Source: Escherichia coli 042 (GTDB lineage: Bacteria; Pseudomonadota; Gammaproteobacteria; Enterobacterales; Enterobacteriaceae). Taken from it: a DNA stretch of 64,000 bases. The stretch's first letter is position 1. Each line of letters opens with the position of its first letter. Location: NCBI RefSeq assembly GCF_000027125.1, contig NC_017626.1. One strand, given 5' to 3'. Positions 46,733-46,812 of the stretch are shown piece after piece. Both the position numbers and the translations under genes were made by a program. Below the pieces are notes generated by a model. It did not search any database. It saw nothing but the letters and a program-made list of their open reading frames with translations, and had not been told where the DNA came from.

Positions 46733-46812
46733 CGCAACCTCGTCTCGGTATTTAGGTGGGTTACTCCGGTAAAGCGGTTAACAGGCGGCAAAACTTTAAT
46801 CGCCTGCGCAAA

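Follow-up and report, generated by a model that had tools for sequence, protein, structure and literature searches.

The anti-sigma factor gene flgM of the primary flagellar system of E. coli and Salmonella is transcribed both by read-through in flgAMN and from a class 3 flgMN unit, and the early genes of this system (Flag-1) depend on FlhDC and sigma-70. In the K-12 Flag-1 locus TAAAGATT-N11-GCCGATAA begins 5 nt past the flgA stop codon, and the flgM ATG comes another 43 nt later. For lateral systems, flgKL, lafA and flgMN have been assigned to class III (sigma-28) and flgAMN to class II in Vibrio parahaemolyticus (PMC6963403), and RNA-seq of Plesiomonas shigelloides showed that a fliA_L mutant loses the expression of fliC_L, flgMN_L and flgKL_L (PMC11242183). 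The canonical sigma-28 consensus is defined in PMC2859248 and PMC12784957, the -10 element being (-15)GCCGATAA(-8), and an open-complex structure revealed that the non-template -11A is flipped out and nucleates melting (PMC12784957). As reference open-complex structures we used that of the P. aeruginosa fliC promoter and that of E. coli (6PMI). No description of a lateral sigma-28 consensus was found in the open-access literature.

In the Flag-2 (lateral flagellar) gene cluster of Escherichia we identified a site that is very probably the class 3 (late) promoter of the lfgM-lfgN operon, read by the system's own sigma-28 paralogue LafS. The cluster is contained in the window, by which we mean the whole analysed stretch of 64,000 nucleotides, and is about 97% identical to that of E. 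coli ESC818 (L001), whose RefSeq annotation runs from flhA to lafU and includes a FliA/WhiG-family sigma factor (LafS). The gene lafS would lie just past the 3' end of the window, and we assume that this genome has it as the 97% identical E. coli locus does. While lfgB-L are located on the plus strand, lfgA, lfgM and lfgN are divergent from them on the minus strand. The P-ring chaperone gene lfgA (46813..47550; Pfam ChapFlgA, E=1.2e-29) ends with its stop codon 14 nt 5' of the -35 element described below, and is followed by lfgM (46454..46732), encoding the 92-aa anti-sigma-28 factor of Flag-2 as judged from Pfam (FlgM PF04316, E=7.8e-10) and the ESC818 RefSeq annotation, and by the FlgN-type chaperone gene lfgN (46013..46441; Pfam FlgN, E=2.9e-19, and gene order). 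As lfgN begins 12 nt 3' of lfgM, both genes are presumably co-transcribed. In the annotation of the near-identical E. coli locus, genes for a RelE/ParE toxin and an HTH antitoxin also separate lafW from lafZ within Flag-2 (57883-58536, plus strand).

A first-pass annotation had proposed a sigma-28-type promoter about 60 nt upstream of the anti-sigma factor gene, and its letters are literally as given. The -35 element TAAAGTTT at 46791..46798 on the minus strand matches the consensus in all eight positions and is part of a wider conserved block TTAAAGTTTT (46799..46790). It starts 66 nt from the lfgM ATG at 46732, thus shortly 5' of a late flagellar gene, the downstream ORF being a FlgM homologue by Pfam. 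The proposed 11-nt gap (tgccgcctgtt) and the following AACCGCTT at 46779-46772 are there as well, yet the reading of the latter as a partial match to the -10 consensus did not stand, since AACCGCTT agrees with GCCGATAA at only one of eight positions and the conserved element starts one base downstream. This corrected -10, ACCGCTTT(A) at 46778..46770 on the minus strand, follows a 12-nt spacer (46779..46790, minus strand), of which the length is kept but not the sequence, and shares four of eight positions with the canonical GCCGATAA. Its core is an invariant CG (46776-46775) followed by C-T-T-T, with C46774 as the equivalent of the canonical -11, and a canonical -10 with the core CGA and -11A at 11 nt from the -35 is therefore not what we find (1/8 at 11 nt, 4/8 at 12 nt). 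We regard ACCGCTTTA with the 12-nt spacer as the true -10 because the conserved block sits there across Flag-2 loci. From its end to the lfgM ATG there are 38 nt, as compared to 39 nt from the end of the -10 originally proposed, and the Shine-Dalgarno sequence GAGG, as read from the sequence, is located 5 nt 5' of the ATG (46738..46741, minus strand), where ACGAGGTTG is kept in Escherichia, Citrobacter and Phytobacter. If -8 corresponds to 46771, the canonical numbering (PMC12784957) would place +1 at about 46763, inside a predicted transcription start region at 46760..46764 on the minus strand. In this region, about 8 nt 3' of the -10, lies a GTAAC or ATAAC that is kept in most lfgM promoters across genera, and the TAAC columns are partly conserved in our anchored alignment.

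Besides the register of the -10, a second correction concerns the count of the motif. The octamer TAAAGTTT occurs once in the 64-kb window versus 1.8 occurrences expected and is thus not above chance. In a canonical scan (TAAAGTTT-N10-12-GCCGATAA) the lfgM site scores 12/16, reached only with the 12-nt spacer, and 15 sites in the window, mostly within genes, equal this score. We have given up the canonical-consensus score as an argument for the lfgM site, which it does not separate from these 15 others. Such counts, along with the terminator-free lfgA-lfgM gap, are what one would expect from a chance match in AT-rich intergenic DNA, with lfgM being expressed only via read-through from lfgA. 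We strongly disfavour this possibility and give it next to no weight, as the site is judged real because of its conservation across species and not because of a motif count.

To describe this conservation we fetched 24 Flag-2 loci via an alignment of LfgA homologues, taking one genome per species, with LfgA identities between 94% and 34% (Escherichia and Pseudocitrobacter 90-94%, Citrobacter 59-64%, Phytobacter 58%, strain RIT691 41%, Leminorella 37% and six Yersinia species 34-35%). In all but one of these loci the lfgA-lfgM gap holds T(T/A)AAGTTT, 14 nt and CGCT(T/A/C)T; the distance from AAGTTT to CGC is 14 nt in 22 of these 23 gaps and 13 nt in the remaining one. The 24th locus (Escherichia sp. 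MOD1-EC7003, L006) carries the motif behind a 1.9-kb insertion. A representative search and contig look-ups led to five more distant Flag-2-type loci (L027-L031, 43% to 32% LfgA identity), and all of them have the motif before lfgM. One locus with 33% LfgA identity (L032) lacks both a called lfgM and a correctly spaced motif, and L034 was uninformative. The members identified via LfgA representatives and cluster names were enterobacterial or from Pseudomonas and Gynuella only. In the anchored alignment of 18 non-redundant sequences the information content per column amounts to 1.88 bits for the -35 octamer and 1.41 bits for the -10 block, versus 0.39-0.44 bits for the spacer (0.44), the 25 nt upstream and the 5'-UTR. 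At least seven genera thus keep the two boxes and the distance between them with the neighbouring bases scrambled, which argues against a chance match, and E. whittamii (L005) illustrates this with five substitutions in the spacer and both boxes intact. As the compared sequences are homologous, this conservation shows constraint but not which protein binds.

The same collection showed that LfgA of Pseudocitrobacter (L002, L003, L007) is about 93% identical to that of Escherichia and that of Citrobacter only about 60%, which suggests a recent horizontal transfer of the Flag-2 cluster between Escherichia and Pseudocitrobacter. The lfgM leaders of Yersinia (L019-L024) are longer (64-114 nt), and most of them contain a hairpin (GGTTGTGG...CCACAAC) about 20-60 nt 3' of the -10, which is absent in Escherichia and Citrobacter.

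Natural variants of the region also spare the two boxes. The most divergent E. coli allele (TUM14664, L037) differs at seven of 151 nt, none of them in the boxes or the spacer, three being located directly 5' of the -35, one just past the -10 and two in the 5'-UTR. In MOD1-EC7003 (L006:10739-12620) lfgA is separated from the promoter by a gene for a C-5 cytosine methylase, and in E. coli DCE7 (L038:1-2500) a methyltransferase and a type II restriction endonuclease replace everything upstream, so that lfgA is absent. In both, homology to the window resumes at CGATTAAAG (about 46802), 3 nt 5' of the -35, and neither the promoter nor lfgMN is damaged. Because the adjacent gene in DCE7 is on the opposite strand, the lfgM promoter is the sole recognisable promoter left before lfgMN in this strain, which is difficult to reconcile with expression by lfgA read-through only. 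As a separate observation, the lfgA-lfgM gap appears as a recurrent junction for foreign restriction-modification DNA in these two strains.

It also counts against expression by read-through only that neither a sigma-54 nor a sigma-70 promoter was recognisable before lfgA itself. No sigma-70-like promoter was detected on either strand of 46400-47700, and the lfgA strand of 47551-47700 contains neither a sigma-54 match with up to one mismatch nor a sigma-70-like site; the only exact sigma-54 site in that stretch points toward lfgB. This leaves lfgA without a recognisable promoter although its V. parahaemolyticus orthologue flgAMN_L has been reported to be LafK/sigma-54 dependent. In the gap itself (46733-46812) there is no sigma-54 core (TGGCAC-N5-TTGC; GG-N10-GC) with up to one mismatch, and a terminator scan between lfgA and lfgM was negative.

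Alternatively, the gap might act as an RNA element, be it a structured 5' leader or a hairpin that terminates or attenuates transcription after lfgA. Indeed, a 6-bp inverted repeat flanks the octamer, CAGGCG (46806-46801) pairing with CGCCTG (46787-46782) and leaving the -35 in the loop, and this stem is present in the minimum-free-energy fold. Nevertheless the fold energy of the gap is ordinary (z = -0.63, with 55 of 200 shuffles folding as well), the stem has no T-run and nothing was found there in the terminator scan. Moreover, P. faecalis (L007) and E. coli TUM14664 (L037) have lost its 5' arm and E. whittamii (L005) its 3' arm, in each case without compensation. We therefore disfavour an RNA element, which is the least probable of all readings.

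Further evidence for a late promoter comes from other genes of the cluster. From 15 non-redundant lfgM sites and no others we built a two-block weight matrix, which we applied to either strand of the window with 20 simulated windows as null. Its best non-self match is located 42 nt before the lateral flagellin gene lafA and scores 20.1 versus a null maximum of 17.3; this putative sister promoter reads TTAAGTTT-N11-GTCGTTTT (59850..59877, matrix span 59849-59879, plus strand). The next independent match, TTAAGAAT-N12-GCCGCTTT (54436..54463, matrix span 54435-54466, plus strand), a second candidate sister promoter about 29-32 nt before the lfgK ATG, scores 13.0 and hence within the null range (null maximum 17.3). 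The matrix also finds the lfgK sites in L005, L016, L020 and L023, and the Phytobacter lafA site scores 27.6. By direct inspection TTAAG, 17 nt and CG(C/T)T are present in all 17 distinct lfgK upstream regions, with identical spacing in all genera, and the lfgK motif occurs in L028-L031, which carry it before lfgM as well, and in L035. In a lateral-type cluster of Pseudomonas sp. Q1-7, TTAAG-N17-CGCC precedes both the flagellin gene and lfgK. The Flag-2 late motif T-W-A-A-G, 17 nt, C-G-Y-T-T-T is thus conserved at orthologous positions in the lfgM gaps, including those of L027-L031, and is found before lafA and lfgK, the other genes that homologous systems place in the lateral sigma-28 regulon.

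In the window the minimal core TWAAG-N17-CGYTNT occurs four times versus 0.45 expected, a number reached in none of 100 shuffles. The lfgM and lfgK sites account for two of them, a third is directed toward lafZ and the fourth is intragenic. The latter (21088-21115, plus strand) was taken as a chance match, being located inside the signal-peptide coding region of a gene for a 157-aa periplasmic protein outside Flag-2. The lafZ-directed match, TTAAGATT-N12-CGCGTTTT (59701-59674, minus strand), is found in the lafZ-lafA divergent region about 187 nt before the start of the regulator gene lafZ and is not conserved in Phytobacter (L015). Just 5' of lafK the lfgM-trained matrix gives matches in two Yersinia loci (L023:18466-18436, minus strand, 16.4; L021:18553-18522, minus strand, 12.5), which hints at a possible sigma-28 feedback on the gene of the sigma-54 activator in these two species. 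Moreover, REP-like palindromic repeats (GCCGGATAAGGCG... and GCCTGATGCGACGCT...) are present in the window at 54330-54425 and 60840-60900, just 5' of the lfgK promoter and 3' of lafA; other species have unrelated sequence at these positions and keep the promoter.

Altogether 33 distinct Flag-2 late sites (14 lfgM, 17 lfgK and 2 lafA) could be compared. T-(T/A)-A-A-G as well as the C and G of the -10 are invariant in 33/33, and 32 sites have identical spacing. The CG is followed by C in 28 and by T in five sites, never by A, and then by T-T-T-(T/A). This CGC-type -10 pattern itself is solid, being based on the 33 distinct sites of the first retrieval, on L027-L031 and on the Pseudomonas lateral cluster. 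The sites resemble the sigma-28 promoters of the open-complex structures in having two boxes, a TAAAG-type -35 and a CG dinucleotide in the -10 that corresponds to -13C/-12G, but they differ in that -11A is replaced by C (28/33) or T (5/33). Against the canonical consensus the Flag-2 late sites match at only 10-12 of 16 positions. Conversely, the canonical flgM promoters of K-12 and L033 (TAAAGTTA-N11-GCCGATAA) score 6-8 on the Flag-2 matrix, on which Flag-2 sites reach 13-32. As a polar-type flgM from Gynuella shows TAAAGTTT-N11-GCCGCCAA, a C at -11 is not exclusive to Flag-2.

The two boxes could in principle be half-sites of a dimeric DNA-binding regulator, as TAAAG...CTTTA forms a partial inverted repeat. 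At the site in the window CGCTTTA is the reverse complement of TAAAGCG, resulting in TAAAG-N17-CTTTA with 5 bp per arm. Over the 33 sites, however, the -35 octamer agrees with the reverse complement of the -10 at only 3.5/8, which is background level, the left box contains nothing to match the invariant CG, and the TTAAG and CGCTATA variants break the symmetry. In addition, three different operons have the boxes about 30-45 nt before their start codons, which is promoter distance, and we thus hold a dimer site to be very improbable.

More serious is the question which sigma factor reads the promoter. It might be real but recognised by the primary sigma-28 factor FliA of Flag-1, instead of or beside LafS, which would couple both systems. 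The -35 is a perfect 8/8 match to the E. coli FliA consensus, and LafS and FliA are homologous (37% identity between LafS and E. coli FliA) and share residues reported to contact -12G and the extended -10; in an alignment of LafS to the solved sigma-28 chains the equivalents of Y76, R80, R82, D87, D93 and R97 are kept. On the other hand, the -10 lacks the -11A that canonical sigma-28 flips, and C or T takes its place in 33/33 Flag-2 late sites, mostly with the 12-nt spacer, whereas the Flag-1-type promoters (K-12 and L033) combine GCCGATAA with 11 nt and score low on the Flag-2 matrix as mentioned above. The LafS protein itself differs around the -11 pocket: compared to the solved sigma-28 its specificity loop is one residue shorter (D66 to G, S72 to G), and R101 and R104 are replaced by Q and H. 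All seven LafS orthologues examined share the loop shortening and the changes at D66 (G) and R101 (Q), none of which occurs in E. coli or P. aeruginosa FliA, and the orthologues vary at S72 (G/A/H) and R104 (H, and F in one). Finally, the motif is no less conserved where the primary FliA is a different protein, namely in Yersinia and in a Pseudomonas lateral cluster. Recognition by FliA is consequently unlikely, albeit the alternative we take most seriously. Many database entries for LafS of E. coli are 400-aa proteins with a FliL domain and sigma domains (P0234-P0252), and they look like lafF-lafS fusions or gene-calling artefacts.

The differences between both proteins fit a separate -10 recognition, given the conserved LafS-specific changes (shorter loop, Q for R101, H for R104). 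We tentatively propose, with somewhat less than even confidence, that LafS recognises a -10 distinct from that of FliA, namely RYCGCTTT(A) at 12 nt, in which a pyrimidine takes the place of the -11A flipped by canonical sigma-28. If true, there would be insulation between the late promoters of both flagellar systems of a cell, and LafS would have to nucleate promoter melting differently, for example by flipping another base. A family-wide -10 without -11A could explain how two sigma-28 paralogues have separate regulons and would offer a natural variant for the study of melting.

With LafS as the preferred reader, the following model emerges. LafS-RNA polymerase would bind the -35 TAAAGTTT (46798-46791) and the -10 ACCGCTTTA (46778-46770), 12 nt apart, and start transcription at about 46763; the resulting mRNA would carry the GAGG ribosome-binding site and have a 5'-UTR of about 30 nt. 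LfgM is expected to keep LafS bound and inactive up to the point at which the finished lateral hook-basal body exports LfgM, and the activity of LafS is therefore proposed to feed back on its own inhibitor. Production of the FlgN-type chaperone would coincide with that of LfgK and LfgL, its presumed clients, the operon of which has the same promoter motif. Read-through from lfgA may contribute further lfgM transcripts, as it does in Flag-1 and in the lateral system of V. parahaemolyticus. As to the internal promoter, the arrangement would correspond to the dual-promoter flgAMN/flgMN architecture, lfgM being located directly 3' of lfgA on the same strand, with a sigma-28-type promoter in a terminator-free gap. 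Which sigma factor binds, where transcription starts and the feedback loop are the parts of this explanation that we infer. Counting against it are the poor canonical -10 (4/8, with C where the flipped -11A sits) and the matrix score of lfgK within the null range. The assignment as a sigma-28-type promoter of lfgM, already suggested in the first pass, is nonetheless supported by the conservation of both boxes, the motif before lafA and lfgK, the precedents from Vibrio and Plesiomonas and the position of the K-12 flgM promoter.

Two exact sigma-54 promoters were found by pattern matching in the same cluster. The first (TGGCAC-N5-TTGC, 47580..47594, plus strand) precedes lfgB and would be class 2, and the second (60994..61008, plus strand) is located before lafB, the operon of which runs on to lafS in E. 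coli ESC818. A one-mismatch site, CGGCAC-N5-TTGC, is present at 45935-45921 on the minus strand before the lysine-N-methylase and glycosyltransferase genes 3' of lfgN.

In summary, the putative lfgM promoter corresponds, within Flag-2, to the well-known class 3 promoter of flgM, and its biology is therefore ordinary in the sense of an expected feedback circuit. It shares with the K-12 Flag-1 promoter the gene order flgA-flgM-flgN, the short gap after the flgA stop codon, the distance of about 40 nt to flgM and the -35 consensus, and probably also its logic, as in both cases the anti-sigma factor gene would be under the control of the sigma factor that its product inhibits. In contrast, the Flag-2 -10 is ACCGCTTT(A) at 12 nt with no A at the -11 equivalent, compared to GCCGATAA at 11 nt in Flag-1 of K-12, the presumed sigma factor is the paralogue LafS instead of FliA, and the early genes have sigma-54 promoters instead of depending on FlhDC/sigma-70. 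What this analysis adds is a family-wide Flag-2 late-promoter motif with a -10 off the canon, a pattern that may have been noted before. As T-W-A-A-G, 17 nt, C-G-Y-T-T-T it is a precise and testable definition that can be used to annotate Flag-2 late genes in Enterobacterales and at least one Pseudomonas. Compared by unit and not by promoter sequence, the genes with the motif are the same three units that depend on lateral sigma-28 in the orthologous systems of Vibrio and Plesiomonas, the sigma dependence being experimental in V. parahaemolyticus and Plesiomonas and predicted from sequence in Escherichia Flag-2. It thus appears possible to place Escherichia Flag-2, from its DNA only, in the three-tier scheme of the Vibrio lateral system, with sigma-54 promoters before lfgB and lafB and sigma-28-type promoters before lfgM, lfgK and lafA.
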